Positions 12,830 to 61,925 of a stretch of 64,000 nucleotides of DNA are shown here, one piece after another; position 1 is the first letter of the stretch; every line of letters begins with the position of its first letter. The stretch is from assembly GCA_008632985.1 (NCBI GenBank), contig QPGO01000001.1:714404-778403 (forward strand), given 5' to 3'. The position numbers and the translations under genes are program-made. The DNA is from Psammoneis japonica (taxonomy: Eukaryota). The notes under the pieces were generated by a model. That model was not told the origin of the DNA. It did not search any database and saw only the letters and a program-made list of their open reading frames with translations.

Positions 12830-14620
12830 CCCCCCATGCCCCTGCTGCACTGCCACACAACATCGCCCGTGCAGCGCAACGAGCAATGCAACCTCCCGCC
12901 GCGACGCTGTGGATCACGCCATTGTTGTCCTTGTTGGCCGCTCCTCACTCACGCAGAAACCCTGCCACAACCTGCGTGCCGACACACATCACACCCACCA
13001 TCACACCCATCACACGCAGAAATCCCACCACGTTCTACGCTCCCGACACCACCATCATGATGACCGAAAACGCCCACCATGACGCAACTGGACGCGTTCC
13101 AGCCCCAGGTGGGACTCCGTGTGACATTGGGCCCGTAGAATTCTACGTGCGAGCTCCGTAGTGCAAGAATTTAACCAATGGACACATTCATCTTCAACAT
13201 CAAATAAACTGCCAAGTTTGTGGTGCAATCATGCCTCTTGCCACTCGACGTTTTTGCAAATGCACCTGCCCCACGCGATTCTTAAGACATTGTAGAATCG
13301 CGCTGTGACAAAAAATGTCAAAAGTTTTTGGACGGATCGCTCAATGAGTGCACCGTAAAATGACACAAAATGTCAAAAAATCACGTAGAATTCTACGTGC
13401 GCAACATGCGACGAGATTCAAAAAACCATCGATGTCACAGTTCAGCAGTGCGAGGTCCCACCTAGACCTGGAACGCGTCACCGCGTCCTCCCTCGACGCA
13501 TTTACCCTCCTCAACGACAACTCCTGCACCGACTCCGACTCTGACCCCGAAACTAATGAGTCAATCTTCGACACTGCGGACACCACCGACGCAGCATCCG
13601 CTCCCCACTCCCATCCGATCACGACATGCCTTGGGCCGACACCTCCATTGCTGCACCCCTCAACCCTGCAGACGACACCAAGCATGAATCCATCGACTGC
13701 CGCCGAGTCTCCTCCATCAAAATCAAGGACATTGCCCCGCCAGACGCGCCCCACCCCCAACCCGGATTTTGACGAATCTCAGTGCAGAAGCCGTCACGTC
13801 GTCACTCAGCATCAGCTTCTCACAGTGCTGCGCAAGCAGGCCACTGAACACCACCACACAGCCTTCCAGGACCTCCGCACCCGCATTGACACCCTGCAAG
13901 CCCAAATCCAAGCACAACACCCAACCGCATGTCTTGTTGGCAACCTCGCACCCGGCATCCTACCCCCACGAGCGATGCCTGGCACCTGCACGCACGCTCT
14001 TCCCTTTGCCGCCTCTCACCAACTGCGCCTCTCCTCCTCTTCCCTGTTTTCACAGGCCTGACAATTGGTGGGCACTGGTCCACACTAACTCGCCTCCGCC
14101 CCCTGCCCAACGGCGCGGTGCGATCACAACCCTCTTCCATTTTGTTGCACTTGCCCCTGCCACTGCCCGGCGCACGCGACAGGCAACGCGCCGGGTGGCA
14201 ATTTGTTGGAACCCTCACTGTCCCTCGGACCTGGCCAGACATGTGACCAACAATGTGGCAGGGATCAGCAGTGCCAGGGGACACGGACATCGCGCCTTCG
14301 GCGCGATGCGCCAGAAAACCTGGGGGGCCTCGCTGTGCAATGCAGCCCCAGGTTCCCTGCCATTCTTGAGACGACAGGGCGGGGTGACATTTGAGGAGCC
14401 CGTCCTGGGCACAACGTCCCGGGGACCTTTTCTGGACCTCAGCGGGCGCCCTTGACCATGCGCATCAAGGGCGCTGACTGCCTGCAGGAGACCAGGTTTT
14501 GGCCACATGGTGGCCCTCTGGAGGTGACACATGCTTTCGTGGTTGCTGGGGCCCCTGGCATGAACCAGGGAGAGCACAAAGGATGCTGCCGCCTCAGCCT
14601 GCTTAAAATAGATCCCACAC
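12830..14620. mobile_element. Unclassified insertion interrupting propeller copy 1
   Basis: Sequence absent from paralogous copy 2 between the matching flanks. Bounded by CA-rich runs; contains a nested MITE and a GC-rich hairpin. Confidence 0.6.
13091..13479 (+). mobile_element. MITE, GACGCGTT-TIR family
   Basis: TIRs GACGCGTTCCAGCCCCAGGTGGGA / TCCCACCTAGACCTGGAACGCGTC; flanks ACTG/ACCG (4-bp TSD with one CpG transition). Confidence 0.85.
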
Positions 14621-15264
14621 ACACACACACCTGTTGTGGTGACGAGGAAGCCGCGTGCGGTGTGGACAAGGCTTTGACTCCCCGCCATGTTGCTCATCGC
14701 CGCCAACAACAACGAGAGGAAGCATTGGAGACGGCTCCAAGTGCCGGTGCAGTCGCTGGAGCTTTTGCTGTTGGTCTCGGAGGACAGGAAGTTCAGCGTG
14801 GACGGGATGCTGACAATGTCACCCCAATGACAGCACCCGAAACAACACCGCCGATGCCTCAACCACTGCAGCCTCCCACTGCCAATGAGCCTCCCACACT
14901 CGCTGAAGCGCACTTGGCCGAACCGACAGAAGATGTGGAGGATTTGCAAGCACAAATGAATCAGATGCGACAACAAATCGCGCGTCTTGAAAAATCGGCT
15001 CCCGCCGCACAACAGGCAGAGGTTGCTCAGGTGGTTTTAACAGTTCCCAATGATGAGGAGCAGAATGCAGAGTCCGCAGGTGACGACAATGAAACACCCA
15101 TTGACAACAACGACAACCACGAAGAGATGGACAACAAGCGTCGTCGTCGTTGCAAATGCTTGGTTGTCATGGGAGCGGCAGTGTTGGTGGTTGCGGCGAT
15201 TGTTGGAGCTGTCGTTGCTGTGCTGTCAGGAGGTGGGGGGGGAGAAAGCGCCACTCGACCTGCC

Positions 15265-15483
15265 ACAGTTGCTCCCGCCACCCCATCTCCTACAGTGGCC
15301 CCCGCCACTCCGGCTGCTGCAGTTGCTCCCGCCACCCCATCTCCTGCAGTTGCTCCCGCCACTCCGCCTGCTACAGTTGCTCCCACCACTCCGGCTGCTG
15401 CAGTGGCTCCCACCACTCCGGCTGCTGCAGTGGCTCCCGCCACTCCGGCTGCTACAGTTGCTCCTGCCACTCCATCTCCCTCT
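15265..15483 (+). repeat. 27-bp coding tandem repeat, 8 units ((T/A)VAPATPxx stalk)
   Basis: TVAPATPSP TVAPATPAA AVAPATPSP AVAPATPPA TVAPTTPAA AVAPTTPAA AVAPATPAA TVAPATPSP; copy 2 has a single unit. Confidence 0.9.
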
Positions 15484-18219
15484 CCAATCATTGCACTTCC
15501 AAACGGTCCGTGGAATCCTGTCGACCAAGTCTTGCATGGCAAAGCTACAAGTGATCGTTTGGGCAATTCCGCACCCTTGTCTCGTGATGGCAGTGCCATG
15601 GCTGTTGGAGCAAATCAACGGTTATCTTCTTCCACTCTCCCCGGCTGTGTTGTTGTGCAATGATGCAACCCAAGCACCCAACAATGGGAACAAATTGGCC
15701 AAGAATTGATTGGACAAACGGACGGCGACCTTTTAGGAGATTCTGTTTCATTGGATGGCGACGGCACAATTCTTGTGGTTGGAGATCCATGGAATGACCA
15801 TGGCGGAACAAATGCCGGTCGTGTTCATGTGTTTGAATGCAACTCGGCATCGGATCTTTGGGGCCAACTCGGCAGCGACATTCTTGGACAGGACGCTGGT
15901 GGTTGGTTTGGTGCTTCTGTGTCGCTCTCGGACGTGGGAGACATTCTTGCCGCGGGAGCGCATCAGGATGACACGGAAAATGGCGTGAATTCTGGATCGG
16001 TTCGATTGTTTCAATTCGACCACGGATCCTCATCCTGGAACCAACTCGGACAAACACTCATCGGCCAAGCCTTCAATGATTGTTTTGGGTTTTCCGTCAC
16101 CTTGAATGCGCAGGGAACCATTGTCGGTGCTGGAGTGCATTTAAATGATTTGGGTGGAGACAATGTGGGTCAAGTGTCGGCACATGAACACAGTTCTGCC
16201 TCATCAACATGGAATCTGTTGGGTGATCCAATCAATGGACAAGTCAAATGTGGTTATCTTGGATTTTCTGTTTCTCTTGATGACAGCAGTTTGACAGCAG
16301 CCGTGGGGGCACCTCGAGAAGACAAGAGGGTTTTGCTTTATTCACATGACCACTCGACTTTGACATGGAATCAACGTGGCCAAACTCTCATGACACAACA
16401 GTCTGGTGATGATTTTAGATGGTCAGTGCCATTGAGTGGCAATGGAAACATCTTGGCAGTCGGAAGTCGGTTGCATGACATCAATGGATTGGATGAAGCA
16501 GGTCAAGTTCGAATCTTTCAGCACAACAGCAATGCAGGCAAATGGAAGCAAGTTGGAGATGCCACAAATGGCAAGGCTGATGGTGATCATTTTGGATGTT
16601 CCGTGTCCTTGTCGGCCGACGGAAGCGTCGTTGGAGTTGGCGCGAGTTGGGCTGATGTCAATGGTGGCAATTCGGGATCTGCACACGCATTCACAGCAAA
16701 TGACAAGCAGAAATGTATTTTGCATTTCATCCTCTTGTGTCACTCTCCATCGTGAGTCTGTGCGTCGACCGTTCTTCGTGCGCGCTCGCACGCACACGAA
16801 GGTCTCCTCATAGACTCTCATGGAAGTCAGACGGACAGTTTGTTACGATGCCTCCGGAATCCCCGCATGTTTCTGCATGTGCAAAAAACTTTTCTATGGA
16901 GAATTCTACACGAAACATGCCAGGAGGGCACGGCAACAAATTGCCTGCATGCGACCCTGGTGCATCATCCGTCTTGCTTCCGCGAGAGTCCATGAGGAGA
17001 CTTCGGGTGTGCGCGCACACGACAATGGTTGATGCACAGACTCACGATGGAGAGTGCTCTTGTGCCGCATCAATCACACTGTGTTTTTCTGGTTCTTGTG
17101 CATCGTGTCATCGTGTGCTTCCACCGCTCATTGAAAAAAAAAACAGGTCTGTCTGTCTCTCCACTTTTTGAGTCGTGCCATCCAAACACGAATCATCATC
17201 GCCTCTCGTTGAATTTCCATGATGGCAAAAACAAAAATCGCAACAACAACAAACAACATCAATGACAATGGCAACAATGACCACTGCATTTGAAGGACTG
17301 TTGCCTCGTGAGTGCACTCTGTCATTGTTGTGTTTGTTGTTGTGGACATTCTGCGATTGACTTTTGCACTGTTTTTCATGAGTCAAAGTCAATGCCGACT
17401 GACCGTGAAAATCATTGACACACTGCTGCTGCCATGTGCACCATGTCATTGTTGCAGACACACACATGCTCATGCTCACTCTCTCTTTCCCGCCACTGAC
17501 AACAGCGAAAAGGAAGGACAGTGTGTTGGAGGTTGGAGGTGGAAATGTCAACTGAGCAGCGCGGGAAAGCTCAGCTGCTGCCACCACTGCTGCTGTTGCA
17601 AACAGCAACAACAACAAAAGCTGCAATGATCTTGGAGGATGTTGATGTAAGAAGGGTTTGTTGAGCTGAATCAAAAAAGTCTGTCTGTCTTCCAACCCCT
17701 CCTGAATTGTCATCATTGCCTCTTGTTGAAAACAGCAAACAACCGCGCTGCTTGCATGACAACAATGGTGACCTCTTTGGCCTCCCACCCCCCATGACAA
17801 CACCACATGCGCATTCAGGCCTGGCCTTCCCACCCACCGCCAGCCCCCACCATGCCATGCTCCATTTTGTGCACCTTTTGGCCACCCTGTCCACCGCTGT
17901 TGGTGTCATCATCAAAAGTCTTTGCCCACTCCCACCATCACTGCCTCTCCCCCATCCTCAATCCTCACCTGTTGCCAACTGCAATTTCCACCCCATTTGC
18001 CACAACTGGAACAACTGCCCCATCTGTGCCACCTGCTGTCCTGCCTTTCTTTGCAAGGTCAAACAAGATGAAAACTTCAGCGACAAAGTGCAATGGCTCC
18101 CTCTCATGTCTGACACAATCACCAGCACCACATGTCAGAATGAACAGGGTGTGCAACACTGCACTCTTCCCTTCCATGACTTGAATCCTGAGAATCATGA
18201 GAGATTCAAAAATTCATGT

Positions 18220-21200
18220 TTCAGCTCAGTTTCCATGAGAGGAGCACAAGGGAAACCCAGGTGTTGGGGAGAAAACCCTCAACCTCAAATCTGACATGAT
18301 GGCATGGGCACCAAATGCCAATGCGTTCCACAACATGAGGTGCACATTGAACTTCAATGGTGCCGTTGGTGTGTGCACTTGAACAATGGGGTGGGAACCA
18401 CAAGCTGATGCTGGTTTGAGCTTGGTTGGATCAATCATTTTGAGAAGCACTTTTGTCCGCCAACCTGAAAGTCACAGGGTTGGCATTTGGCATTTGCACT
18501 GCACAGGTTTGCATTGACAAGAGCTTGGCAATGTTCTTGACCAGCGCCAGAAGATCTGGCTTCACATTGCATTGAGCGCCATTTTGCTCCAGGTGGCATC
18601 TTGAGAGCACGGGATGCCGCACATCACATGGCATGCACAGATGTGGCCAGAGTGGAGGGCGTGCATGAAGCAAAGTGCACAAGACATTGCCAACAATTTT
18701 TTGGTGCATGCATTTGCACGCTGCATTGGACTGTGCATTCCATGAGGTGCCAGGTGCATCATCAACTCCCGCTCTTTGTAGAAGCAATTGAAACTACTCT
18801 CCTGTAAATTTTTCACCACCATTGTCATGGATGCAACAGTCAGGTTGAAGACAACAACACAAGCAACAATTTTCAAATTGTCAAGCAACATGAGGTGAAG
18901 TTTTGTTTTCATTTCAGCAACATTTGACACCATGTCAACACAGGTCAACACATTGAGTTCAATCTCTTGGCCTTGGGTGTCAATCTTTCAACAAGATCAA
19001 CCGCTGCTTCAGACCAAGGCAGTGAAGATGCTGCACTTTCAGGCAAGTTTCCATGTCCAGGGCCCAAAGTTTTCAAACATTGACAATCAGCACAATGAGG
19101 TTCTTCACACACATGGCACAGTGCAGGATGATGAAAATGTGCGCCAACAGTGGAATGCATTTGATGCACCCCTGCATGTCCAAATCATGTTCAGCAATGC
19201 CATTGCATCATGTCAGGCAACAATGCAGCAGGAGTGCAGATTTTCCACAAAGTTGGAGGATCATTTGGCTGAGCCCGGTGACAAATCACAGGATGCTGAT
19301 TTACACATTCCACAACAAAATGATTCAGACTCTGTTGGCTGACACATGTTGTTCAACTCCATGTCAAAATTTGTGTTCCTGGATCTGTTGAACAGTGGCA
19401 GGATTTTGCATCTCGTCAAGGGATGGACAGTCCAGAAGCAAATCAAACAGCTCTGGATCATTCACAAAAGAAGAACAAAAGTGAGAAGGTTCTTCATGTT
19501 GACAGGCAAAATGACACACTGGACTTTGCTCGTCAGGCTCCTCTTCTTCTTCATGAGGTGGCATGGCAGCATCAATTGCCTCAAAATCTGTTAAATTGCT
19601 TTTGTTGGGAGCACACTTCCCTTTTGCAGGATTGTCCATGCAAGGCAATTGGGTGAAACAATCAGCCAGTGCATTTTCTTTGCCATCAATGTGCTCAAAT
19701 GCAGGTGCCAAAAAAATCCAAGAAGAGTTGCCACCTGAGTGCACATTGAGAATTGAGTGCGCAAAAGGCGAGGTTGTTGTGATTGGTGAAAACAGCACAA
19801 TTGCCTCCAAGCAGCATTGTGCAAAATTCCTTGAAGCACATCGCCACCACCAGAAGCTTTTTTCAATGGCAGAACAATTCTGCTGTGCCAAACTGAGTTT
19901 CTGCTGGGAGCAATGTGCAATTGGTTTTACTTTTTGGGCAATCACTGCACCCATTTGGCAGTCACAAGAGTCAGTGAAAATGTGGAAGGGTTTGTTGTGA
20001 TTGAGACAGGCCCAAAAAGTGTCATCCAAGAACGTTCCGGCATCCACGCCAATGTTCCCTTGCCTGTTGGCTTCATGAGAGGAGCGAGTGTGTGTGAGAG
20101 TGATGTGACCACAAAAGAGCACAGTTGCATCATGCTCCGCAGAGGTTGCACTCATGGCACAGCATCAACTTTTTATTCCATGGCTGAACTCCTCCTGTTG
20201 GTGCAAGCCAATGGCCCAGAAAATCAGTCTCTTGGACACACCACTTGTGGAGTTTGAGCAGATTGACCTTGAGATCATTCTCTTGTTCTAGTCTGATTGA
20301 CAACTTGTGTCAAGATGATGCATGTGTGCACAAAACAAATCATCAAATTGAACAATGTCATCAATGTGAGCCTCAACATCAAGGCCATTTGCCACTTTCT
20401 CAATGACAGCTTGAGCAATGTCTGGAGATGTTTTCAATCCCATCACAAGACAACAGCATCAAAATTTGCCCCAAGTGGGGTGACAACAGTGCAGGGGTCC
20501 TTGGGCTCTTTGTTTGAGCTTGACATGGCAGCAGAACATGGGTGAGGTCCAATTTGGTCCAATGTTTGCATCTTGAGCGGCAATGAATCATGTCTTGAAC
20601 AGCAGGCAGAGGACAAAATCTTGTGTTTGAGGAGTTTGTTCAACTGACCATCCTTTTTGGGTGCAACAAAGGCTCCAACTGCCCATTCTGTTGGACAACC
20701 CACTGGTTTCAATGCTGACGGGCTCCAGTCCTGGGTGGGACTCTGTGTGACATTGGGCTCACAGAGTTCTTCGTGCAAGCTCTGTGGCCAAGAACTCAAT
20801 TGATGGACATTTTAATCTTCAGCAACATGAAATGAACTGCCAATTTTGCAGTGCATTTGCACCTGTCCACACTCAATGTGTTTGAAAATCTGCCTGCCTT
20901 GTGCCATTCTTAACTCCAATTGCATCAGATGCCCTGTTTGAGGCCCACATGTGGGCCATAAAAACATGTGGCCCACACATGGGCCACAATTTTTTCAAAT
21001 CTTCTTCAACAACAGAGATGATCAATGAAAAGACCCCACAGTCAAATTCTCCACACCTGAAAACACAGGTGTTGACACTTCAGCTGTTGAAAAAGTCCCA
21101 CTGTTTGTTGTCATGGCCTCTAAAATGTGCTTGCTTTGTGTGCAATTTTTTGCTGATTTCTCCCTCCACCATGGCGGACCCTGCGGCTGGCCCCACTGGT

Positions 21201-23520
21201 GAAGGACATTCACTCCAGCAATCTCGGATGCCTGACAACATCATCAGGAAAATGTCAGATGTGTCAGAATTGCTTGCAGCAGGAACAGACATGCCTTTTT
21301 TGCCTGTTCAAGACATGCCTCAAAACCCGGAATTGCACTCTGCTGCCAAAGCACCCTCTGTTCCCATGCATGCCACCCATCCAAGTCTTCCTGTGGAACC
21401 ACCAGTGGCCAAGAGAGCTCAGGTGCAATTCAGCTTTGCCAAACACAAAGTTCACTGTGTTTCTGACATGAATGGCCAGTGCTTGCATCCTCAATGCCAG
21501 CTGCTGCACTCCACTGTGGAAAGCATCGCTGGCATCAACAAGGGTGGAGTCAGCTGTCTGTCTCATTTTTGGTGCACAAGGCAGTGCAACAAAGACAGGC
21601 CAGACAAATTCCAAGTGGGCTTCATTGTGCTGGGTGCTGGTAGATGCCCTTCAGCATTTTGTTCTCTGTGTGGTCAACTGTTGCATCCATTTTAGAGCAT
21701 CAGGCTGAGAACAGACACACGGATGAATTTTTGTTCTGTCAGTGCAAATGGGGTGCAAAGAGATGCACTGTTGAGTTGCTTTGCTGGGAGAGCAAGGCAA
21801 GTCCAATTTTAAGTGAAACAAGCACACAAAGATGGGGCACACTTTTAGCAGCCTCAGTGTGCATGCAGCACAAGCACATGTCACCTTCTGACAATCATTT
21901 GCACAGTGCAGGAGGTCCAGCAACTGTTCTCACAGTGTCAAGAACCACTCCATTTCAGACTTGGCAACAAAAGATCTGAGAACTTTTTTCACATTTCCTC
22001 TGCACCTGTTTGTGCTTCTTGTCCCATTGGCCCACTCATTTGATGTCTGCCCAAAATGTGCAAATGCAAGTGACAAACCAACTGAGCACCATCCAAGCCA
22101 TTGTTGTTGACAATGAGCTTTGGGAGTTGCTGCCACCTGTTTGTCTTCAGTGGCTTTCACATTCATCTCTTTGTGTTCTTCTTCCTCATCCTCTGCACCT
22201 TCATGTGCTGTCGTTTCTTCCTTGGCCACTTTGGGCTTGTCACCCTCTTCTTGCTCATGGCTCGTGGCTGCTGCTCAAGTCATTGCCAGCTGCTGCATGT
22301 TTGTCCTCAATGTTGCTTTCATCAGCTGAGCCAATTGTCTTGTCTGGAACAAACGCACATTGTTGGACATTGTGTCATCCTCTTCTGAAGAGCTCATTGC
22401 TCAAAACAGACACAACATTGATGTTTCCCATCAAAATGGCAAAAAGATGACCTTTGTTTTAAGAATTGTGGCCAATTTGTGCCCCACACGTGGGTCACAA
22501 AAATTTGCAATCAGAATTTTGCAGCACAGATGCGGGCCACAAAATTGCACTTCAGGCGTCTGATGCAATTGGTGTCAAGACATTTGTGAATGGCATGGCA
22601 CAGAAGAAAAAAATGTAAAAGTTTCACTGCACAATGATGCAAAATTTGACCAAAGTCAGGCAGATGTGTGCATGTGCAACATGTGGTGAGATCCAAAAAA
22701 ACCCATTGATGTCACAGTTCAGTGGCATGAGGTCCCACCCAGAGCTGGAACACATCTGCTTTGACATTGCAAAGATGCTTCACTTTTTTCTTGAACAATG
22801 CTTCATCATTCTTTGACACTTCACAGGCTCAAGAGTGGAAGGGAAAAGCATTGGGATCAACTTCCAACTTCCAAATGAACAGCTTCATGCAGACATTTTG
22901 CTGAATGTGCCATCAAAAAGAGGTTCATGCCTTTCAAGCATTGCTTGCAGTTTGTTGCTCTGCTCAGGGGCTGGATGAGTTTGAGCTTGTGCTGCCCTTT
23001 CTGTCGAAACTTTTTTGCACTTGGTGTCCAACATGCAGCTCTTGCCCAACAGCTCTTCTTCAAATTTGTTGCTGTCCTCATGGTCGTCAAGCACATCCAA
23101 CCAACTCTGCACTCAATTCCAATGATCAGACTGGTGCTTCATTGGGATCAACACATCAAACCACTTGTTGATGACTCCAAATCAAGAACAGAGTGCCTTT
23201 CCTGCTGTCGCCAAAAAATCTTGACCTAAAATCACATCAAGTTTTTGGACTTGCAGTGTGCTGAGGGGGGGAAATGGCACTCAGCGCTTGCAAAGTGGAC
23301 AAAAAGAGCAAAAAATGATCAAATTTTGTGTGCTGTGCATTGCATTTGACTGTCACAAAAAGCTTGCTTGTGGCATGCAAAGGAGGTTTCTCCAGTGTTG
23401 ACATTGTGCCACCACATCAAAAAATCTTTCTTGAGCCACCAACTCATCAAAAAAATGTTCTTTGCTGCTGTGAGCACAGTGCTCTGACCAGAGCCAGTGC
23501 AGCTCTCTCCAAAAAGCTTT
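18220..23520 (-). mobile_element. Decayed Ty3/Gypsy pol (RT, RNase H, integrase)
   Basis: LERHEPLFDGT; TEWAVGAFVAPKKDG; RNase H KPFHIFTDSCDCQMGAVIAQKVKPIAHCSQQKLSLAQQNCSAIEK and HIDGKENALADCFTQLP; integrase NAQSNAACKCMHQKIVGNVLCTLL and HTNGTIEVQ...VVERIGI. Domain order RT-RH-IN. Confidence 0.9.
20717..22756 (+). mobile_element. 2-kb old copy of the GACGCGTT-TIR DNA transposon nested in the Gypsy RT
   Basis: Left end GACGGGCTCCAGTCCTGGGTGGGACTCTGTGTGACATTGGG and right end GGTCCCACCCAGAGCTGGAACACATC align with the 13091 MITE; exact 4-bp TSD TGCT (20713-16, 22757-60). Confidence 0.85.
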
Positions 23521-25380: not shown

Positions 25381-27393
25381 TTGAACCTTTCTAACAACAA
25401 CAAAAAGATTCCTTACAAGTTCAGCGACGACGACGACATGTGCGACAGAGGTGGTGCTAGTCGTGGTAACTTGATGAATGATCGAGACGAAGAAATAAAA
25501 CAAGAGATTGAAGAATTACGCGAATCTACACCTGCACTATCGACGAGGAAGCTGCGTGCAGCACGGAGAAGAGTTTGACTCACCACCATTTTGCTCATCA
25601 CCTTCAACATCAGCAACAACAAGAGGAAGCATTGGAGATGGTTCCAAAAGCTTCTGCAGTCGCTGGAGCTTTTGTCGTCGGTCAAGGAGGACAGGAAGAT
25701 CAACGAGGACGGGATGCTGACAACAGTGCCCTCATGACGGCACCTGAAACGGTACCACCAATACCTCAACAACAGCAGCCTGCCACTGCTGATGGCCCTC
25801 CTGTGCTTGCTGAAGCGCATTTGGACGAACCAAGAGAAGGCATGGAGGATTTTCAGGCACATGTGACTCAAATGCAGCAACAAATCGTGCATCTTCCACA
25901 ATCGGTTCCCACAACACAACAACTAGAGGTCGGTCAGTCTGTGTTAACGGTTTTCAATGGGGAGGAGCACAATGCAGAGTCTGCAGGCGACAACGACGAC
26001 AGCAACGAAGAGATCGGCAGCAAGCGTGGTCGTTGCAAACTTTTGGTTGTTTTGGGGGCTGGAGTGTTGATTGTTGCTGCGATCGTTGGAGCTGTTGTTG
26101 GAGTGACATCAGGAGGCAGTGGAGGAGGAAGTGGCACTCAATCTGCTACAGTGGCTCCCGCTACTCCAGCTCCTTCTCCAATCATTGTGCCTCTAAACGG
26201 ACCATGGAATCCCGTTGGTCAAGTCTTGCACGGCAAAGCGGAAGGTGATAATTTTGGCAGTTCGGTGTCCTTGTCTCGTGATGGCAGTGTCATGGCTGTT
26301 GGAGCAGGTCAATTTCCTCGCAATCCCGGCTATGTTGTTGTGCAGCGATACGATCCAAATACCCAACAATGGAAACAAATCGGCCAAGAATTGGTTGGGC
26401 AAGCCGCCGGTGACAATTTTGGAGGGTCTGTTTCGTTAAATGGCGGCGGCACAGTTCTTGCTGTTGGAGCTGTTCATAATGACAGTGGGGGGGGGGGGGG
26501 GAGATGCTGGTCACGTTCGGGTGTTTGCGTATGACTCTGTATCGGATCGTTGGGTTCAACTCGGTAGTGACATTCTTGGAAACAGATTTGATCAATTCGG
26601 TATTTCTGTGTCGCTCTCGGACGCGGGAGACATTCTTGCAGCAGGCGAACACGGTGACTTTGCTAATTCGGTTCGATTGTTCCAATACAACCATGACACT
26701 TCATCCTGGAAGCAACTCGGTCAGACTCTGACTGGTGAAGCTGCATATGATGGTTTTGGCTATTCCGTTTCCTTGAGTCAATTGGGAACCATTGTTGGCA
26801 TTGGAGCATACAGCAGTTCTCACTCGGGATATTCGGGTGGAAACTATGATGGCCAAGTGTCGGTGTATGAATACAGTTCTGCATTGTCAACATGGGAGCT
26901 GCTGGGTTTTCCAATCAATGGGCAAATTGTTGGTGGTCACTTTGGATGGTCTGTTTCTCTTGATGACAGTGGTTTGATCTTGGCCGTGGGTGCTTATCAA
27001 AGCGAGAGAGCTTTGGTTTATGCATACGATCGTTCTACGTTGAAATGGAATCAACGTGGCCAAACTCTACTCACGCAACAGCTCCATGATGATTTTGGTT
27101 GGTCAGTGTCGTTGAGCGGCAATGGAAACGTCTTGGCTGTTGGAAGTCCTCGTTTGCATGCCGTTAATGGATTGAACAATGCCGGTCAAGTTCTAATCTT
27201 TCAATATGACACCACCACGTCCAAATGGAATCAAGTCGGAGATTCTTTAAACGGTGAGGCTCAAGATGACAAATTCGGAGATTCCGTGTCCTTGTCATCG
27301 GATGGAAGCGTTGTTGGAGTTGGTGCTAGGCAGACCGACGACAATGGCGAGGATTCAGGATCCGCATATGCATTCGCGGTAAAAAACAATTAG
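25381..27393 (+). pseudogene. FG-GAP-like beta-propeller membrane protein, copy 2 (normal composition; frameshifted as assembled)
   Basis: Same architecture as copy 1 with Tyr codons intact; stop TAG at 27391. Frameshift in a G15 run (26487-26501) and a further apparent frameshift near 25535. Could be intact from the ATG at ~25638 if the G run is a sequencing error. Confidence 0.8.
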
Positions 27394-27789
27394 ATCTGCA
27401 GTTCTATATTTCATCCTTTTGCATCAATCATACTGCATTTCAAGCCACTCACAGCGACAAAATGGGACGATTGCAGATGTATTCGTTATCTCCAGAGGTG
27501 TCATGGTTAGGAGCAGTTGTAGATGCTGACGTCTTTTTGGTATTATTGGATGAGGAAGCTTGGTCCATATAAGCTCGACTCGCCATTCATTTCAGGGAAG
27601 AGCCATTGTCTGGAAGCCACTGGAGGACTAGCCTTCTGTGCAAGGCGGCTGCATCAACGGCGCGTCAGCTTGACATTGCCTTCCTCGATCGATTGCGTTC
27701 TCCTCTGGGAATGAATTTTTGTGGCTGTCGTATGTCCTTAGCATGACGTGAATGGAATAACCACCACGAGTAAAATTCAAACCATTCAA

Positions 27790-45062: not shown

Positions 45063-47430
45063 GGAACACTTTCTCCGATGACCTGCTTGTCTTGCCTTCA
45101 AGGCTCCCTTTGTGAACCATTTTAAAAACCTGTCTGAATGCAATTGTCCATTGCAGTTGTGGTGTGCCTTCTGTGGCTGTCATCAACAAACGTGCAACAA
45201 ATTCCTCGTGTGAATCATTCCTTTTGAGTTGTCTTGGTGGGGTGTCATCTTCTGGTGATGCCCATTCCGGCTGATCCCGCGCAAGCTCCTGCCGCACTTG
45301 ACTGTGTGCTGGGAGTGTGGGCCAGCCGGTGCTGGCCTGGCTGGCAAAGGAGTGACAGCACTTAAAAAAAAAACAGATCTGTTTTTTTTCTGTTTCCTGA
45401 GTGGCAATGAATGGCAACACTTTGCATTTGATTTCAAGCACTCTTTTGCTCAAATCATTTCATCATGTTTCAAACATGGTTGAACGTGATGTGATCCTTC
45501 AAATTTTGATTTCTTGTTGAAAACTGTCCAGTTGATGCCAGATCCAAAGGTGCAATCAGGGAAAAAAGTTTTGCATGAACCAGCATGAACCAGGGAATGC
45601 AGAAATGTAAATGGTGAGATTTTAAGATGCTGTTGTTTTGCATTAGAGTCACCTTCAGTTGGCAGACATTGTGCATCACTCATCTGACCATCACAAGTTC
45701 TTTTTGTGGGGGGGTTGGATTTGTCCTTGCAAGAATGCAGCAGCTTCTTCATTGCTGTGTGGAAAGTCTTGAGCTCTTCATGACCCATCTTGTTGATGGC
45801 AATCACCTCAAGCCTTCTTGGACCACCAACATGGTGTGGCATGTTGATCTTTTCTTCTTTGCAGTTGCCCATCTGATTTGCATTCTTTGATGTCTTCAAT
45901 GCACTTGGGGTGATCCAAACAAGAGAAAGTTGGTGATTTTTTGGACAGACAACAGCCAGGCAGTTGCCCAGCGGGTGCAGCATGTGCTTGTGCTCAAAGA
46001 TCAAAACTCCACCATCAGCATGTGTGAAGCTTTGGCCAGGTGAGCCAAAGCTGGCACATTGAACAACAACATCATTGCACAAGTGACCATGGCTTGAAGC
46101 ACAGATGGCTCATCCACTTTTGTGCATCTCTTGTCTTTTGTCTTGCAGAGCTTTGGGTTGTGTCTTTGTTTCTGTTGGGAGTCACAACAGGTTCAAGAAC
46201 AGGGGTGCCACCATCAACAGCTCTCTTGCATCTTTGCTCTGCTGGGATTGATTGTGAGTTGAGGGATTGACAAGTGCAGCAGCATTGAGCATGTGAACAA
46301 AACACCATTTTGCTGATGACTTTCACATGGGAACTCTCAGAGTGCCATTGCTGCTGTTGCTGGCTTTCTTGCTGCACTGTCATTCTGCCAGGATTGCTGA
46401 GTTGAGAGATCATCAAGCAGCATTGTGTGTGCCCCTTGGAAGGTGCTGAAAGTGCAAAGGTGTCCATGGAAATGTGGGGCATTGTTTCTTCCATTGCTGG
46501 CTCTCCTGCAGCATGCAACATCATTCTGCCTGGATTGGTGAGTTGAGGGGCTGGCAAGCATCAGTGTGGTGCATGTGCTTTGGCAGGTGTTCTTGAGAGC
46601 ATGAAAGAAAAATCTTTTCCCCAAGTGCAAAGTGCAACAGTGTCACTTGGGAATGTGGAGCATCATTGATTCCATTGCTGGCTCTGTTGCATCATCATTC
46701 CACCAGCATTGGCAAGTTGAGGGGTTGGCAAGCAGCACTGTGCACATGCTTTGTCAGGCATTGAGATGCTGCCACCCAAGACAACACCAATGTTGTTCAG
46801 GCAGCACCATCAAAGTGCATCGGACAGGTGCCGTGATGGGTGTGTTGGGCACACTTTCTGATTGAGCCACACTTGACCTCCACTGCACATGTTGCACAGT
46901 TTGTCATTCCCCTCCCAGACACACCTCTGCCAAGGCTGCTGCCGGGAATTCAGTGGACAACTTGGAAGCAATGCAGTCCTCACCCAAAACACTGCCAATG
47001 TCATTCAAGGTGGCATCTTCAAAGCACTTGCCACACTTGAAATGAAGTTGATTTTTGATCAGGGCAGCCAGGAGCTCTGCAATGCCGGCACAGTCACGTG
47101 CCCTCTCACCAAACTGGAGTGGAAACAGGAGTGGAATTACACGATGCCACCAAATGTTGTGGGAAACACCTGGAGCACTCCAACAACCCAGTTCTCTGGG
47201 CCAAGTGCCTCACACTCAAGTTGGGAAATTTTGCGTGATTGAATGGCATCATCTTCTCGAGTCATCAGAGCTTCCGCGTGTTGTGTGCAATGTTGGATGT
47301 TTCATCGATTCGATGGCTCATGACAAGATTTGCTGAAAAACACACAATGACGTGATTCACGGTCTACAATGAAGTGTACTACAAAAATGCAGTGTGATTG
47401 ATGCAAGAGGATGAAATTCAAAATGCATTT

Positions 47431-49788
47431 CTAATTGTCATTTACAGTGAAGGCATACACGGATCCAGAATTAAAGCCATTGACGTCAGCGCCAGCCGCA
47501 CCAACTCCAACGACGCTTCCGTCAGCCGACAAGGACACGGAATTCCCAAAACGATCGTGTTCAGACTCGCCATTGAAAGGATCTCCGACTTGCTTCCAGT
47601 CGTCTGCATTGCTGTCGTACTGAAAGATTCGAACTTGACCCGCATCGTTCAATCCATTGACGTCATGAATGTCACTTCCAACCGCCAAGATGTTTCCATT
47701 TCCACTCAACGACACTGACCATCCAAAATCATCACCAGACTGTTGTGTCATGAGAGTTTGGCCACGTTGATTCCATGTCAAAGTCGAGTGGTCGTACGAA
47801 TAAACCAGAACCCTCTCGCTGTCTCCAGGTGCGCCCACGGCCACGATCAAGCCACTTTCGTCGAGAGAAACTGACCGTCCAAACCAACCATCAATGACTA
47901 GTCCATCGATTGGACTGCCCAACGGATTCCATGTCGACGATACAGAGTTGTATTCATACACTGACACTTGGCCCGCATCATTTCCACCTGAATCATTGTA
48001 AGGTGCTCCAACGCCAACAATGGTCCCCTGCGCATTCAAGGAAACGGAAATGCCAAAATAATCATCAATAGCTTGGCCAATGAGCGTTTGTCCAACCTGG
48101 TTCCAGGAGGATTCATAACGGTTGTATTGAAACAATCGAACTGATCCAGGAGAGTCATTTTCCTCTTCTTGCCAATGCCAAGCAGCTCCCACGGCAAACA
48201 TGTCTCCCGCGTTTGAGAGTGACACGGAATCACCAAATGCCTCAATAGAGTATTGTCCAAGAACATCACTTCCGAGTTGGATCCAACGATCAGATAAAGA
48301 GTTGTGTTCGAACACTCGGACGCGACCAGGGAAAAAACCATATCCGCCATCGTTGTCAAAATATGATCCAACAGCAAGAATTGTTCCGTCGCCATTCATC
48401 GAAACAGACCCGCCAAAAACGTCGTCGATGGCTTCTCGAGTCAATTCTTGGCCAATTTGTGTCCATTGTTGGGTAGTGGAATTGTATCGTTGCACAACAA
48501 AATAGCCGGCATAGTAATCATATTGATCCGCTTCGACAGCCATGACACTCCCATCGCGTGACAAGGAGACGGAGTCGCCAAAATGATCACCTTCAGCTCT
48601 GCCGTGCAAGACTTGCCCAATCAACGTGAATGGACCAGTTGAATAAGGAGTTGGCCGGCGCATTTCTGAACGGATTTCGTCTTCACTTAGCGCCACATTG
48701 TACAGGCTGACAGAATCCACGCGTCCCTTAAAATAACGGCTTCTTTCCTCCTCGTTTTCGTCAAAATGACAGCCAATGTGAAAGGGTGTCTTATTGACAC
48801 AATACGGTCCATGCTTTGGGGGGCTTTCCTCTCCCGACAATTCTCCATTTACGTAGATTCTCAATGTATTTCCGTCGTAGGTCATGGCGGTGTGCGTCCA
48901 AGTCTTGGTAGGAACAGGATTGTCGGTCTCGATTCGAAATTTGCTGTCACTATTGCAACCACCAAAATAGCCACCTGCCCGTACCTTACCGGTTTCTCGA
49001 TGAATGACGAGCCACGTCGCAAATGGTTTCTCAACAATTACCAAAAACCGGTCGTCAGTAGCAACGTAGCGTACCCATGCCATCATGGTGTAGGATTTCA
49101 TGTTGAGGCTGGTAGATTGAGGGACAACAACACATTCATTCCTTCCATTCAACCAGATTGCATTCTTGTAAACGCCGGCAGAGTCACGGGACGGTGTGCC
49201 ATGCCTTTCTCCATTCCATCCCATCTTTCCCGTATCCTTGAGAAGTCCATTAAATCCATCAAAGGTATACTCCACGAGTGGACCAATGCATGGCTTCAAG
49301 CTTGGTAGACTGACCGACATTGGAAATAGCTCGCGATTCTTCCCAACGTAAAGAGGGATGTGTTCAGGCGAACTGATCTTAAGACAGGCTTCTTGTCCTT
49401 GCTTCATGAAGAAATTGAAACCGTCCACGTCACCTTTATCCAGCTCAAACTTGAAATCCGTACCGCTCGTCGAATCCGTACCTTTTTCAAGGAGCTTGAA
49501 ATCAGTCGCCATCTTGATGATGTCGTCGTCGTCGCTGTTTGGAACCAACGTACCGCTGACCAATGCTTCTTGTCCGCCGGCAACCGCACGTAGATACCAC
49601 GCGTTGGAGGAACACTTGTTCCATACAAAGATGCCACGGTCCTTGTTCTTGTTGAACGGCGGAGCACCACATGCGGCTGATGGTTTTTCGTCGGCAGCAG
49701 CTTGATGGGATCCAATCAAAAGCAATGGCGTAGTAGCGACGAGGAGTAAGAGACGAAGATGAGAGCGAATGTAAACCGGGGTTTTCAT
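47431..49788 (-). CDS. Secreted protein: signal peptide + N-terminal beta domain + LamG-like jellyroll + FG-GAP-like beta-propeller (copy 3, intact)
   Basis: MKTPVYIRSHLRLLLLVATTPLLLIGSHQAAA; LamG motifs SYTMMAWVR, WTHTAMTYDGNTLRIYVNG and YFKGRVDSVSLYNVALS; repeated FG.SVSL..DG..LAVG; stop TAG; uninterrupted. Confidence 0.93.
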   Translation of the reverse strand: MKTPVYIRSHLRLLLLVATTPLLLIGSHQAAADEKPSAACGAPPFNKNKDRGIFVWNKCSSNAWYLRAVAGGQEALVSGTLVPNSDDDDIIKMATDFKLLEKGTDSTSGTDFKFELDKGDVDGFNFFMKQGQEACLKISSPEHIPLYVGKNRELFPMSVSLPSLKPCIGPLVEYTFDGFNGLLKDTGKMGWNGERHGTPSRDSAGVYKNAIWLNGRNECVVVPQSTSLNMKSYTMMAWVRYVATDDRFLVIVEKPFATWLVIHRETGKVRAGGYFGGCNSDSKFRIETDNPVPTKTWTHTAMTYDGNTLRIYVNGELSGEESPPKHGPYCVNKTPFHIGCHFDENEEERSRYFKGRVDSVSLYNVALSEDEIRSEMRRPTPYSTGPFTLIGQVLHGRAEGDHFGDSVSLSRDGSVMAVEADQYDYYAGYFVVQRYNSTTQQWTQIGQELTREAIDDVFGGSVSMNGDGTILAVGSYFDNDGGYGFFPGRVRVFEHNSLSDRWIQLGSDVLGQYSIEAFGDSVSLSNAGDMFAVGAAWHWQEEENDSPGSVRLFQYNRYESSWNQVGQTLIGQAIDDYFGISVSLNAQGTIVGVGAPYNDSGGNDAGQVSVYEYNSVSSTWNPLGSPIDGLVIDGWFGRSVSLDESGLIVAVGAPGDSERVLVYSYDHSTLTWNQRGQTLMTQQSGDDFGWSVSLSGNGNILAVGSDIHDVNGLNDAGQVRIFQYDSNADDWKQVGDPFNGESEHDRFGNSVSLSADGSVVGVGAAGADVNGFNSGSVYAFTVNDN

Positions 49789-49939
49789 CTTTGTTCTTTG
49801 AGCTTGGTGGCGGAATAAGGAGAGAAACAATCTCGTTCTTGATAATAATGCGTGGGTACGATCGAAATAGGGTTGGCCAAGTGAAGAAACAAGAAGCGCC
49901 TGAAATCTTGATGTATACAGGGAATACAAAGACTGGTTG

Positions 49940-50410
49940 TTATTGCTGTGTTGTTGTTGTTGTTGTTGTTTTGCGAAAGTGGAAAAATTATGACAAGGAT
50001 GAGAAGTCGATTCAGGTGTTTTCGTGATGCTCAGTCATGCCGTGACACCTCGTATGTAGATCATTTATCACAGCTCTCGTAGGAAAAAAATGGCGGGAAG
50101 TAGGGTTCTCATCGCCCAAGTGACACCCATCGTGTTTGCCATACGGTCGATCTGTCGTAGAATCTACACAGAGTCTGGTATGTTTCTCATCGTGAATGAA
50201 GAAGAGGTGCTGTGACACACGAGTGCGATGAGAATGGCACTGACGGGTAGGTTCGGATAGCCTCTTGTCGTTCAAAGGCGTCATGGCATCAGCAATGAAG
50301 TGAGTCCATTGCTCTGCCTCTTGTTGGAGGTTGCGTTCTCGCTGTGGAGTGAGAGTTGTTGTGATTGTCATGGTGTTGATGCGCTGCAAACATGTTGTGG
50401 TGTTGGGCGG
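49940..50410 (-). promoter_or_regulatory. Conserved upstream/promoter block of the propeller family (copy C)
   Basis: Reverse complement aligns with ~12300-12760 and ~25040-25345 and lies directly upstream of the intact copy 3. Promoter function is inferred from position only. Confidence 0.6.
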
Positions 50411-52804: not shown

Positions 52805-54120
52805 TCAGCGAGGCGATGCTAATTCGTGATTGGAAGACTCAAAAAGGAGAGATCGACAGACTTTTTTGATTTTCGGACGAAAGCGACAAGAACCCCATGA
52901 CAATGCATACGCGGATCCGCACTCGTCGCCATAGTCTTTGCCCCGGCACGCGCCAACTCCAACGACGCTTCCGTCGGCCGACAAGGACACGGAACTTCCA
53001 AAAAGATCATATTCATCCTCGCCGTTCAAAGGATCTCCAACTTGCTTCCATTCATCTGCATTGCTGTCGTGCAGATAGATTCGAACTTGACCCACATTGT
53101 ACTCACAACTTCCAACCGCCAAGACTTTTCCATTTCCACTCAACGACACTGAGTTTCCAAAATCATGACGCGACTGTTGCGTCAAGAGAGTTTGGCCACG
53201 TTGCTTCCATGTCATAGTCGAGTGGTCATACGAATACACCAAAACCCTCTCGTTTCTACCTGCACCAGTGGCCACGATCAAACCGCTGTCGTCAAGAGAA
53301 ACATAAGTCCCAAAGCGTCCACTCTTAACTTGACCATTGATTGGATTGCCCAACAGATTCCATTTTGACGAGGCTGAATTGTATTCATGCACCGACACTT
53401 GACCCGCATTGCTTCCACCCAAATCATTTAAATTTGCTCCAATGCCAACAATGGTTCCCTGCACATTCAAGGAAATAGAAACACCAAAGTGATCATCATT
53501 AGCTTGGCCAATGAGTGTTTGTCCGAGTTGGTTCCAGGATGAGGTGCCGCGGTCGTACTGAAACAATCGAACTGATCCAGAATGCTTGCCGTTTTCCGTA
53601 TTATCCCAATAAGCTCCCACGGCAAGAATGTCTCCCGCATCCGAGAGCGACACGGAATGACCAAATAAATCACCAGCGTTTCGTCCAAGAATGTTGCTGC
53701 CGAGTTGGACCCAACGATCCGACACTGAGTTGTATTCAAACACACCAACGTGACCAGCATCCGATCCGCCACTGTCATTCGCATCCGCTCCAACTGCAAG
53801 AATCGTACCGTCGCCATTTAACGAAACAGACTCTCCAAAACCGCCGCCGCCGGCTTGTCCAATCAATTCTTGGCCAATCTGCATCCATTGTTGGGCAGCG
53901 GGATTGTAACGTTGCACAACGACATAGCCGGGATTGTAAGGTTGCGGTGCTCCAATAGCCATGACACTGCCATCACGAGATAAGGAGACGGATTCGCCAA
54001 AATTATCATTTTCCGCTTCACCATGCAATGCTTGACCAATGTCATTCCACATTTCGTTTCACGGTAAACTACCACCAGAGTGGGATTGGGTGTTGGAGGT
54101 TGGAGCTGGTGATGGAGTGG
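52805..54120 (-). pseudogene. FG-GAP-like beta-propeller copy 4, truncated at both ends
   Basis: Propeller ORF 52805-54052 is open. In-frame TGA at 54059-61 separates it from a TPSPAPT stalk that is cut at ~54120. The family ending SAYAFTVND* is replaced after SAYA by unrelated sequence. No signal or TM segment. Confidence 0.75.
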
Positions 54121-56214: not shown

Positions 56215-56255
<41 letters not shown>

Positions 56256-56256
56256 G
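56213..56256. repeat. (GTT)n microsatellite
   Basis: Directly visible. Confidence 0.95.
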
Positions 56257-59346: not shown

Positions 59347-59374
59347 CTCTCTCTCTCTCTCTCTCTCTCTCTCT
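59347..59374. repeat. (CT)n microsatellite
   Basis: Directly visible. Confidence 0.95.
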
Positions 59375-60024
59375 AGCAAGAGGAACCTACAGTTAGTTAG
59401 CACAGTGTGTGCTTTGCGCAGAATTTGCGTGGCCCAGACATCTGACATGTTTCCACAACAAAATGCCGGTCTTTGTCTGCTGCACAGTGAGGATCTGACA
59501 CCATCTCATCACAAACTCTCAAAGAGCCCACCCTTTGTTTTGAGAGCTTGTCTCAAGATGCCACCAGTGCATCAACAGCTCTCAAATCATTGGCCATGTC
59601 ACAATTTCTCCAAGTTGAAAATGTGATCCACCAACATGCTGCAAAACCAAGCAAAGCCCTTTGGTCAAGAAGGTTGACATCATCTCAAATGATGGCAACT
59701 GCACTCCTGAAATCAACACAGTTGAGAGTGGGCTTCTGGCGCAGAAGCTCATTTGTTGCACTTTGCAACTTTCCCTTCACTGAAGATGTGCACACCGTTG
59801 CTGCTCTCTGACACATGTTGTCTCGTTTTCACCATTTTTGCACACTTCTCTCACCTTGTTGTTTGTTTGTGACACTCCTTTTGTCATGAAAGAACATGAG
59901 ATCTGTGACAGTCATCACAAATGGGGTGGGACTGTGGCCTGCATGTCTCAGCTTGTGGGCTGCTTGCACCCAAGTGTCACCCCAAGAACCTGGTGCTCAA
60001 GTGCTTGCCAGCCACTGAGATGAC

Positions 60025-61341
60025 GATGTGTTTTCATCCCAGGTGAGAAACTTTTGGACACATCACGAGGTTTTCTATGTGTTTCTACATGAGACGTACA
60101 TTTAGTGCCAAAAATCTCAGTAAAAAACGAGCTCCATGACAGCAAAAATGTGTTTTTCCATGTCTCGAACCACAAACCACAATTCGCGCAAACCGAAAAT
60201 GGCGCCATGCCGTCGCCATGAACTCGTCCATTCTTGCGCCAACGGATGTTGTGACTGAGAAGGCAAGAATGCCGAGACAGGTCAACAAAACAACGCTCAA
60301 TGCGATGATGTGGTTGAAAATTTGATCTTTGTTTTTTGTTGTGCCTCATGGATGGCCTTTTGACTCATGATGTTTTTGATGCCTCTTTCTCTCTTCCTCA
60401 GCTTGCGAAGTGGGATTCTCATCAACGCGCTGCTCCATCCACTTGACACCGGATGCTGACAACGAAGAATGTTTCTATGACACGTTGCTGTGATTCTCGT
60501 GATGCATCGTCCGCACTTTGAGTCGTCATGGACGACGCTTTTGGGTCGTGCGACAACATCAGATTTCGCTGCCGACAAGAGAATCGTTGTGTGTTCGGTT
60601 TTGAGGGTGTGTGAGGATAAAGAATCTCAGATGCAAGTGTGACAGTTTCATTGTTGTAAAGTAGAACAACACCACTGGCAACATCTCAGTGTTGCAGCCA
60701 TTTTATTTTATTCTAAGATAGAACCAGTCATTTTGAGCGGTGAAATTTTGTCAATGTTTCATCTTTAACTCTGCTTGGGCATGTCAAATCACACAACAAC
60801 TGGACACACATTGAACTTTGACGCCACCATTTCAATCCCATTGTTTTGTTCACTCAAGCACCCCACACAGGTCAACAAATCAGTCGATCTTTGAAATGGC
60901 CGATCGTGCAAAAAAATCACATGCGAAGTCAGTTCCCCCGATTTTTCTTGTGCAAATGACAGAGTTAGAACGCCATTCTTTTTTGGCATGAGCTCTTCAT
61001 GCAATGAACAATGCGTGCATTCTTTCAAAGCAGTCAGATTCAGTGAAAGAAACAGTAGAACAGTCTCTCAAATGCACCAGAGTGACAACAACAAGCAGAC
61101 AGCTGTCAGCTTCACTCCAAAAAATGCCGCTTTCGAGACAGCGCTTTTCTTGTGCGCACCCTTCAACCAATGAGAATGACGGCTGGCTTTTCAAAATGAA
61201 CATGTCTGTGGAAAGAAGAAATGAAAAATCGGGGGAAAGTCCAGTCAGATTTGCTCGCACAAAAAGCACGGCGACGGAAAAGGGACAGACAAAATGCCTC
61301 ACCTCCACACGCGCGTTTCTCACCTGGGATGAAAACACATC
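60025..61341. mobile_element. Non-autonomous TIR DNA transposon, 1.3 kb
   Basis: Perfect 27-bp TIR GATGTGTTTTCATCCCAGGTGAGAAAC; 4-bp TSD TGAC (60021-24, 61342-45). Confidence 0.9.
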
Positions 61342-61529
61342 TGACATGGAGCTTGTGCTGCTGTTGTTTTGTTGTGCTGTGCAGGGACCAATCACCCAAG
61401 CTGGTGAAATCTTGATCCCCCCAACAACAACATGCAAACAGATGCTCTTGAGACAGTCTTGGGCTGACCCTTCTCAATGATTGCAGGAAAAGTCTCTGGC
61501 ATCTTGCAAGCTCACTCAGCAGTTCTTGG

Positions 61530-61925
61530 GACGCGTTCCAGCCCTAGGTGGGAGCTCGTAGTACTGACGTGTGACACAAATAATTTTTATCATCCGTCGT
61601 ATGTTTTGCACGTAGATTTCTACGTGTGATATTTAAAAAGAATTGTCCAGACTCGCTGTTTTGCGAAGCCCCAGACGTTTTATATAACGAGTTTATAGAA
61701 ACAATAATGCGCCAGTTACATTCTTCAATGTCTGAAGAATGTAACTGGCTAAGTAAAAAATGATGTACTTCAATCATGGGCGAGTTTGTGCGTTCGCAAA
61801 ATTGCCTCATTTTCTGTTGGCGATCATTGACATTTTAATTACCGTATAATTTTACTACGGAGCTCGCACGTAGAAGTCTACGGGCCCAATGTCACACGGA
61901 TTCCCACCTACGTCTGGAACGCGTC
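61530..61925 (-). mobile_element. Young MITE, GACGCGTT-TIR family
   Basis: TIRs GACGCGTTCCAG(CCC/ACG)TAGGTGGGA; 4-bp TSD TTGG; right end is the reverse complement of the 13091 MITE left end; TpA- and CpG-rich interior. Confidence 0.92.

Follow-up and report, generated by a model that had tools for sequence, protein, structure and literature searches.

Switch-like loss of TpA from young copies of a miniature transposable element family in the diatom Psammoneis japonica

Why should a transposable element of 396 bp be rich in the dinucleotide TpA when the DNA on either side of it has hardly any left? The question is raised by a stretch of 64,000 nucleotides of the Psammoneis japonica assembly GCA_008632985.1 (contig QPGO01000001.1, positions 714,404 to 778,403; hereafter the window), in which the observed over expected ratio (o/e) is 0.19 for TA, 0.55 for CG, 1.58 for CA and 1.63 for TG. 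The TA o/e is below 0.15 in 78 of its 128 blocks of 500 bp, and the islands that kept their TA overlap open reading frames. Three elements that start at 13091, 20717 and 61530 have GACGCGTTCCAG-type ends and 4-bp target-site duplications (TSDs) in common, and a preliminary description had read them as three stages of a progressive erosion of TpA and CpG. We found that TpA is indeed lost after insertion, but in a near all-or-none manner per copy, and that copies inserted in old, CpG-exhausted DNA are mostly spared; it is this switch-like behaviour and this flank rule that are newly added here.

The letters quoted in that description are present in the window, including TATATAACGAG at 61681, and the common termini and confirmed TSDs place the three elements in one family of miniature inverted-repeat transposable elements (MITEs). 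Like other MITEs, the members are short (~390 bp), non-coding and uniform in length, have imperfect terminal inverted repeats (TIRs) of ~24 bp and a TSD, and occur in hundreds of copies; they differ in combining GAC..GTC ends and a 4-bp TSD that is loose in composition, and the family carries no superfamily label. The copy at 61530..61925 (minus strand, opposite in orientation to the other two; 396 bp; TSD TTGG at 61526-61529 and 61926-61929) belongs to subfamily C and is, as had been noticed, TA-rich inside TA-poor flanks, with a TA o/e of 0.91 and with 30 TA in its 396 bp where 1000 bp of flank have 2 (Fisher p=5e-15). Compared with its subfamily consensus it has lost 1 of 31 TA and 1 of 27 CG and differs at 2 other sites. 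The copy at 13091..13479 (plus strand, 389 bp, subfamily A; TSD ACTG at 13087-13090 and ACCG at 13480-13483) has a TA o/e of 0.41. Its reported erosion holds for TA, with 19 of 30 sites lost, but hardly for CG, with 3 of 29 changed to CA/TG; 4 other sites differ. The copy at 20717 (plus strand; TA o/e 0.07) is an old A-like element, and the near-complete conversion ascribed to it stands: in its ends TA became CA/TG at 20 of 26 sites and CG became CA/TG at 20 of 27, with 60 of 260 other sites changed. What had been overlooked is that this MITE is interrupted at TTAA, its left part (20717..20913, TSD TGCT at 20713-20716) and right part (22575..22756, TSD TGCT at 22757-22760) being separated by a nested repeat of ~1.66 kb.

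The three copies do not form one before-and-after series. The 13091 and 61530 copies belong to different subfamilies, whose consensuses align with 278 identities, 90 mismatches and 50 gaps, which invalidates a letter-by-letter comparison between them; both are young, whereas the 20717 copy is old and nested. Nor is the 13091 copy measurably the older of the two young ones (4 versus 2 other-site differences, 0 versus 2 private changes). We therefore rejected the reading of the three as an age series. At least 39 other copies resemble the 13091 element at 94-95% identity and at least 39 others the 61530 element at 97-99%.

A search pattern that allows for lost TA and CG matched 571 left ends in the genome assembly, the first 100 of which, in contig order, made up the first sample. 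A perfect 4-bp TSD was present in 62 of its 69 elements with both ends found, 65 of which measured 366-402 bp. The young-copy set comprised 68 copies of subfamilies A and C with at most 4.5% divergence at other sites and at least 365 aligned bases; these statistics exclude 23 copies of subfamily D, of which the consensus is saturated, and a further 9 A/C copies that are diverged or partial. A second sample held 78 other young copies (perfect TSD in 74) chosen by similarity to three queries, so that only its flank test is independent. The consensuses of A and C are TA-rich (30 and 31 TA). Copies that had lost at least 45% of the consensus TA were called heavy and those below light.

The loss of TA in the 68 young copies was bimodal (24, 14, 4, 1, 1, 2, 8, 8, 6 and 0 copies per bin of 0.1), with 25 heavy and 43 light copies, a chi2 of 896 on 67 df and a fitted dose ~90-fold apart between the two modes. 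Heavy copies were changed at 531/756 TA, 119/719 CG and 42/6840 other sites, and light copies at 119/1304, 43/1234 and 38/11726, respectively. TA thus changed at least ~100-200-fold more than other sites (70% versus 0.3-0.6% per site), in which comparison TA saturates and the private counts include inherited variants. The loss of CG is coupled to that of TA across copies (rho 0.59), yet the two are separable, TpA going first and much faster: one copy (L121) lost 26 of 30 TA and no CG while being identical to two light copies (L138, L150) at every other site, and another (L139-2994) lost 23 TA and 1 CG.

That the low TpA content is acquired after insertion, as had been proposed, is borne out by the TA-rich consensuses, by conversion of the copies independently of each other, by TSDs converted on one side and by the older copies. 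The direction of change, to CA or to TG, is the same in heavy copies at only 62-63% of the sites that they have in common (maximum for a pair 0.87), and hence they changed independently. Two heavy copies carry a TSD of which one side was converted (TGAG/TAAG and CAAG/TAAG). All 9 older A/C copies had lost at least 44% of their TA, which indicates that conversion is the usual end state. For the 13091 copy a paralog of the flank (L186, 89-94% identical) that is empty at the insertion site reads ACCG, and the left TSD was therefore changed from CG to TG after insertion; over 1389 aligned bases the window lost 12 TA sites and the paralog 4. One contig assembled from run X1 connects 13086 directly to 13480, an empty-site joint. 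We do not read it as a heterozygous insertion: polymorphism of the insertion is unsupported, since the paralog may explain this contig. The empty target site itself (L186:1490-1510; window 13080-13090 and 13480-13490) is a short inverted repeat of GACGC, four bases and GCGTC, and resembles the MITE ends.

The chance of a young copy to be converted depends on where it lies. Copies in 1-kb flanks of higher CpG o/e have lost more TA (rho 0.46 in both samples, p=7e-5 in the first), and this holds in both subfamilies. Where the flank CG o/e was below 0.45, 2 of 19 copies were heavy in the first sample versus 23 of 49 elsewhere (p=0.005), and 3 of 22 versus 27 of 56 in the second (p=0.005); pooled, 6 of 42 copies in low-CG flanks were heavy versus 50 of 105. 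The sparing of copies in old CpG-exhausted DNA is thus a replicated association, and the window agrees with it: the flanks of the 13091 copy (12591..13979; TA o/e 0.12 and 0.15, CG o/e 0.90 and 0.97) are of the TA-poor, CG-retaining class where young copies often show conversion, and those of the 61530 copy (61030..62425; TA o/e 0.03 and 0.03, CG o/e 0.46 and 0.11) are of the TA-poor, CG-poor class where they mostly escape it. The TA content of the flanks did not predict conversion (p=0.31 in the first and p=0.16 in the second sample), and the distance to the nearest TA-rich block had no significant effect (p=0.19; 49 copies with long flanks). Light copies had lost no more CG in CG-poor flanks (37/1008) than elsewhere (67/1572), which suggests that old CG-poor domains are now quiet for both changes.

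The changes themselves have a sharp signature. In heavy copies the conversion per adenine was 0.49, 0.46, 0.23 and 0.20 when the 3' base was C, T, G and A, respectively, and in 675 eroded versus 202 intact blocks the survival of TA contexts was 0.001 for ATAT, 0.006 for ATAC, 0.019 for GTAC, 0.20 for CTAA and 0.256 for TTAA, an order consistent with a 3' preference of T>C>G>A. Both strands are affected within each copy, and so are the target duplications; a weak off-target A>G component exists outside TA. The process seen here is thus a mutation of TA to TG or CA that takes place after insertion, independently in each copy, on both strands, with a preference for T-A-pyrimidine and in a near all-or-none manner per copy. 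With both strands hit and neighbouring sites clustering weakly, a copy was probably converted over many divisions.

Gene duplicates are struck as well. The window contains five paralogues with FG-GAP repeats (14395-16755, 25512-27440, 47385-50034, 52805-54058 and 62986-63997; TA o/e 0.09-0.41, CG kept), one of them fused to a laminin-G domain. The duplicate at 15664..16752 (plus strand), downstream of the 13091 copy, is TA-erased with CG kept and encodes 2 Tyr versus 9-18 in the four window paralogues; tracing of Tyr at the codon level was noisy (6 of 13 to His/Cys). Outside the window, one copy of a C5-methyltransferase gene (L235) is TA-erased.

How could such a pattern arise? We regard it as highly probable that a mutator gated by the locus is at work, and as an even bet that its chemistry is that of a deaminase; the best explanation as a whole, towards which we lean, is a locus-gated A>G mutator, probably of the TadA/ADAT type, that acts on inserted and duplicated DNA. 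A TadA/ADAT-family enzyme would deaminate adenine in transiently single-stranded DNA and the hypoxanthine would be copied as G, giving A to G at TpA, which reads as TA>TG or as TA>CA depending on the strand. At the locus a targeted chromatin state would be switched on, for which the surroundings would have to bear CpG, probably in methylatable form; TA would then be erased over many cell divisions, quicker than one neutral change per copy, and CpG would decay more slowly by ordinary deamination of 5-methylcytosine. Once exhausted, the domain would cease to recruit the mutator, and copies that are still 'off' would keep their termini and remain a source of new copies. The chromatin gate, the methylation, the burn-out and the enzyme are parts that we infer. 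In its widest form the idea, which we put forward tentatively, is that this diatom lineage may possess a chromatin-gated DNA adenine-editing defence, turned on one locus at a time, that quickly erases TA from transposons and gene duplicates and burns out as CpG decays. Its enzyme would be a natural A>G editor of the double-stranded genome with a very sharp preference for T-A-pyrimidine, and old eroded DNA would form a refuge where newly inserted transposon copies keep their sequence and their mobility.

We searched the genome for genes that could encode the parts of such a system. The deaminase domain PF00383 had 9 matches at ~7 loci, which resemble dCMP deaminase, TadA, an ADAT2-like gene, RibD, a guanine-deaminase-like gene and a deaminase-dioxygenase fusion, the finer labels being our presumption; TadA/ADAT-type genes are present in intact form, with L191 and L194 as putative TadA/ADAT2-like candidates. 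In the fusion, a single frame joins a CDA-family deaminase domain to a 2OG-Fe(II) dioxygenase (L193:313-1785, minus strand), and an identical frame of 324 aa for dCMP deaminase occurs on two loci (L189 on C41 and L190 on C317), which are probably allelic or a duplicated part of the assembly. Two genes carry an adenosine-deaminase (editase) domain (L228:935-2472 and L229:672-2385) without other Pfam domains in the pieces scanned; one such gene is expected for tRNA editing. C5-methyltransferase domains, with 27 matches, appear expanded (contigs C43, C10, C59, C78, C27, C301, C297, C34, C28 and others; L230-L236): several are intact single-domain genes, of which DNMT1 appears to be the nearest relative among solved structures, and several are broken or TA-erased duplicates. 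A search for TET/JBP gave no match, the control being equally silent.

Several points weigh against our explanation. No enzyme is singled out, as the predicted deaminases look like housekeeping types, and sequence alone does not tell which of the two bases, A or T, is attacked. The clustering of changes by strand is weak (adjacent sites p=0.021 overall, 0.064 in heavy and 0.088 in light copies; all pairs p=0.29). As for the flank rule, the threshold of 0.45 was set after viewing the first sample, the effect holding from 0.35 to 0.6; CG-retaining flanks hold many copies that have stayed light (13 of 32 and 18 of 36); and the protection that TA-rich genes seemed to give to neighbouring copies in the first sample (4 of 19 heavy) failed to replicate (10 of 22). 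All private changes taken together are higher in heavy than in light copies (ratio 1.66, 1.10-2.51; Mann-Whitney p=0.03). Standing in favour of our explanation, this excess consists of A>G changes outside TA, for which the 147 pooled young copies gave 16 in heavy versus 8 in light copies (ratio 3.25, p=0.0055); in the same copies, private transversions and non-CpG C>T changes stood at 34/15361 versus 41/24968 (ratio 1.35, 0.83-2.18). At a 1000-fold rate, the neutral clock taken alone may leave room for an age difference.

The alternative that survives best keeps the same locus-gated process and places the event on the other base, and we consider it possible, though a good deal short of probable: a thymine would be damaged or excised (oxidised T, a T:G-type glycosylase, biased very-short-patch repair), or an error-prone polymerase would write G opposite T during the repair of methylated DNA. 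TA>TG and TA>CA are equally readable as T>C at R-T-A and the context data fit both bases, the weak strand clustering sits well with it, and the coupling of CG loss to TA loss is what repair at deaminated methyl-C predicts. The two copies that lost 26 and 23 TA with 0 and 1 CG show, however, that repair of CpG is not a required trigger. A>G changes outside TA are hundreds of times rarer than TA change, and the preference of polymerase eta for TA over AA is only a few-fold, both of which count against a polymerase. Human TDG is reported to remove a T that faces a damaged adenine in a TpG context (PMC4041421), but that effect is described on TpG/CpA, which are gained here rather than lost.

Age alone, either as a clock or as one genome-wide pulse that the heavy copies predate and the light copies escaped by inserting later, seems improbable to us. 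It would account for the conversion of all 9 older A/C copies, for the somewhat more numerous private changes and the five times greater CG loss of heavy copies, and it would be in line with the episodic activity in Bigelowiella natans (see below). The progressive, age-graded erosion proposed in the preliminary description is nevertheless contradicted by the bimodality among young copies and by the correlation of TA loss with divergence from the consensus, which was 0.06 (rho, p=0.63) in the first sample and 0.22 (p=0.052) in the second. Where two light copies stand 8 or more neutral differences apart, only 4.5-5.4 of their TA sites differ, and ~20 do in light-heavy pairs with at most 2 neutral differences, the pairs not being independent. 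A cut-and-paste element is, as a sequence, a continuous resident of the genome, and with these diverged light pairs having kept their TA, the source lineages must have escaped for far longer than conversion takes; such a long escape would need an on/off state. Neither does age predict the replicated flank association, as older insertions should rather be enriched in old junk DNA. Age is thus insufficient to explain the loss of TA. For the 61530 copy, which had been suggested to post-date the process or to have escaped it, escape fits better and post-dating less well, though for a single copy age may serve.

Much less plausible still is descent of the converted copies from converted masters, or their overwriting by gene conversion. 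Had TpA content followed lineage, this would by the terms of the preliminary description have spoken against acquisition after insertion; heavy and light copies, however, carry the same haplotypes (label clustering p=0.61 in subfamily C; nearest-neighbour label agreement p=0.067 in subfamily A, a figure on the side of descent). Some TA changes common to many light copies do follow haplotypes (site 316 in 21 of the 44 light C copies), and the consensus of subfamily D is TA-poor, but the discordant directions among heavy copies and the one-sided conversion of target duplications already largely refute lineage or gene conversion as the cause, and lineage is a small component only. A sequencing or assembly artefact, such as miscalls at modified bases, is barely credible, although a single sample is on record and its library type is not given: independently assembled run X1 contigs, probably of the same sample, match 20737-21184 and 22315-22759 with 0 differences and the window over 11.5 kb with 3 single-letter differences among those listed, and older copies show ordinary divergence and nesting.

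The gated A>G mutator that we prefer has known parallels: the process works like the hypermutation of B. natans and like repeat-induced point mutation (RIP) run backwards, and it is not RIP. For B. natans, Mettrop et al. (bioRxiv 10.64898/2026.01.13.699255) give ~6e-7 TpA>TpG/CpA changes per site per generation in two viral inserts, the larger of which was hypermutated in 11 of 15 lines, a ~1000-fold rate on NCLDV (nucleocytoplasmic large DNA virus) and virophage DNA, a claim extended to transposable elements, and an ADAT2-like enzyme that is proposed, not demonstrated; 'diatom' and 'CpG' do not occur in the main text. On that account both processes consist almost exclusively of TA>TG and TA>CA, far above background, and are local; that of B. 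natans is not constitutive, to which the bimodality between copies seen here is analogous, transposable-element-like domains are among the TpA-depleted coding sequences, and a deaminase is the proposed agent. The counts for our heavy copies are of this kind, with the slower CG change in addition, and the sparing of reading frames as TA-kept islands while MITEs and gene duplicates are hit is as expected from an attack on foreign or repeated DNA. The differences are that the B. natans changes come from de novo measurements in a rhizarian, on two viral regions of which one is single-copy, whereas the targets studied here are MITEs, their TSDs and flanks, and gene duplicates of a stramenopile; that the bimodality here lies between loci rather than between lines; and that the on/off state per copy, the dependence on flank CpG, the 3' pyrimidine preference and the trailing CpG loss are found here.

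RIP, in ascomycete fungi, is a premeiotic, homology-triggered and RID-dependent process that creates TA from CA/TG by C>T at CpA, with the changes of one round all falling on one strand. It shares with the present process a dinucleotide-specific hypermutation of repeats and duplicated genes, heavy loads per copy and spill to adjoining bases, but the direction here, polarised by the consensus and by TSD pairs, is the reverse, no creation of TpA by C>T at CpA was found, changes on the two strands appear mixed in each copy with no more than weak clustering of neighbours, and numerous members of the ~500-copy family remain untouched; if adenine is the base attacked, the process would be the chemical mirror of RIP. 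Diatoms are described as encoding a RID-related DNMT4 of unknown function, and their transposable elements as CG-methylated islands with DNMT5-dependent CG methylation, in PMC9998398. Decay of methylated CpG would account for the slower CG>TG/CA component and cannot yield the loss of TA, which comes first and is ~four times larger in heavy young copies (70% versus 17%). With TadA/ADAT2-type deaminases the process would share A>G, the 5' T and a TAC preference, as PMC8065034 ascribes a TA and TAC preference to TadA-derived editors and to the parent TadA. Those enzymes are, however, tRNA-acting or engineered, and for ABE7.10 the same text gives the 3' base a weaker effect than the 5' base and TA an advantage of only ~3-fold over other contexts, so that the selectivity seen here is far sharper, which again weighs against a deaminase of this type. 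No published description of this process in diatoms or MITEs was found among the matches listed, in a literature coverage that lacks most subscription journals.

If this reading is true, TpA hypermutation would be more than a peculiarity of the viral inserts of a single rhizarian alga, namely a large-scale force in a second eukaryotic supergroup; it would shape most of the non-genic DNA, silence gene duplicates and suggest that a DNA adenine deaminase, or some activity equivalent to it, exists in nature. The several hundred near-identical MITE copies form a reporter panel, the same sequence at different loci being on or off, with which the targeting rule (methylation, histone marks, small RNA or transcription) is directly testable, and the five FG-GAP paralogues in their differing TA states are a second reporter series. 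Dating of transposons by raw divergence fails here, since equally young copies differ by ~20 TA changes.

Some observations on the family and its surroundings remain. Subfamily D is a third, older group of 397 bp with a TA-poor majority consensus (e.g. L099, L106 and L117), of which L106 is far less converted than the others. Apart from one element of 652 bp, no long TSD-bounded element that could be an autonomous partner was found among the first 100 left ends. The TIR pattern had no match in metagenome contigs, and, as to how widely other diatoms share the process, 4 short metagenome loci (of 8 returned, the other 4 being weak matches) held no TA-erased block but are too short to tell.

The repeat nested in the 20717 copy (20914..22574, plus strand; TSD TTAA at 20910-20913 and TCAA at 22575-22578) has TIRs, is itself TA- and CG-erased, and belongs to a family with CGCCAATCGCATCAG-type ends and ~30 related loci (L062-L090) at 75-84% identity. 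A TA-duplicating, mariner-like element was considered and rejected, as the duplication is TTAA, from which we presume it to be piggyBac-like. An eroded RNase H fragment of a long terminal repeat retrotransposon adjoins the 20717 element (19364-20164, minus strand). Just left of the 61530 copy lies a perfect inverted pair of 27 bp (60025-60051 and 61315-61341, 1.3 kb apart), possibly another TIR element. Elsewhere in the window a 42-bp tandem repeat (35449-36024) sits within an open frame of 626 codons (34594-36474) in a partly TA-kept region, the frame having no Pfam match; a scaffold gap of 77 N lies near 11.7 kb (approximately 11700-11776); and for one window gene the nearest named homologue is from the diatom Fragilaria crotonensis (58%).

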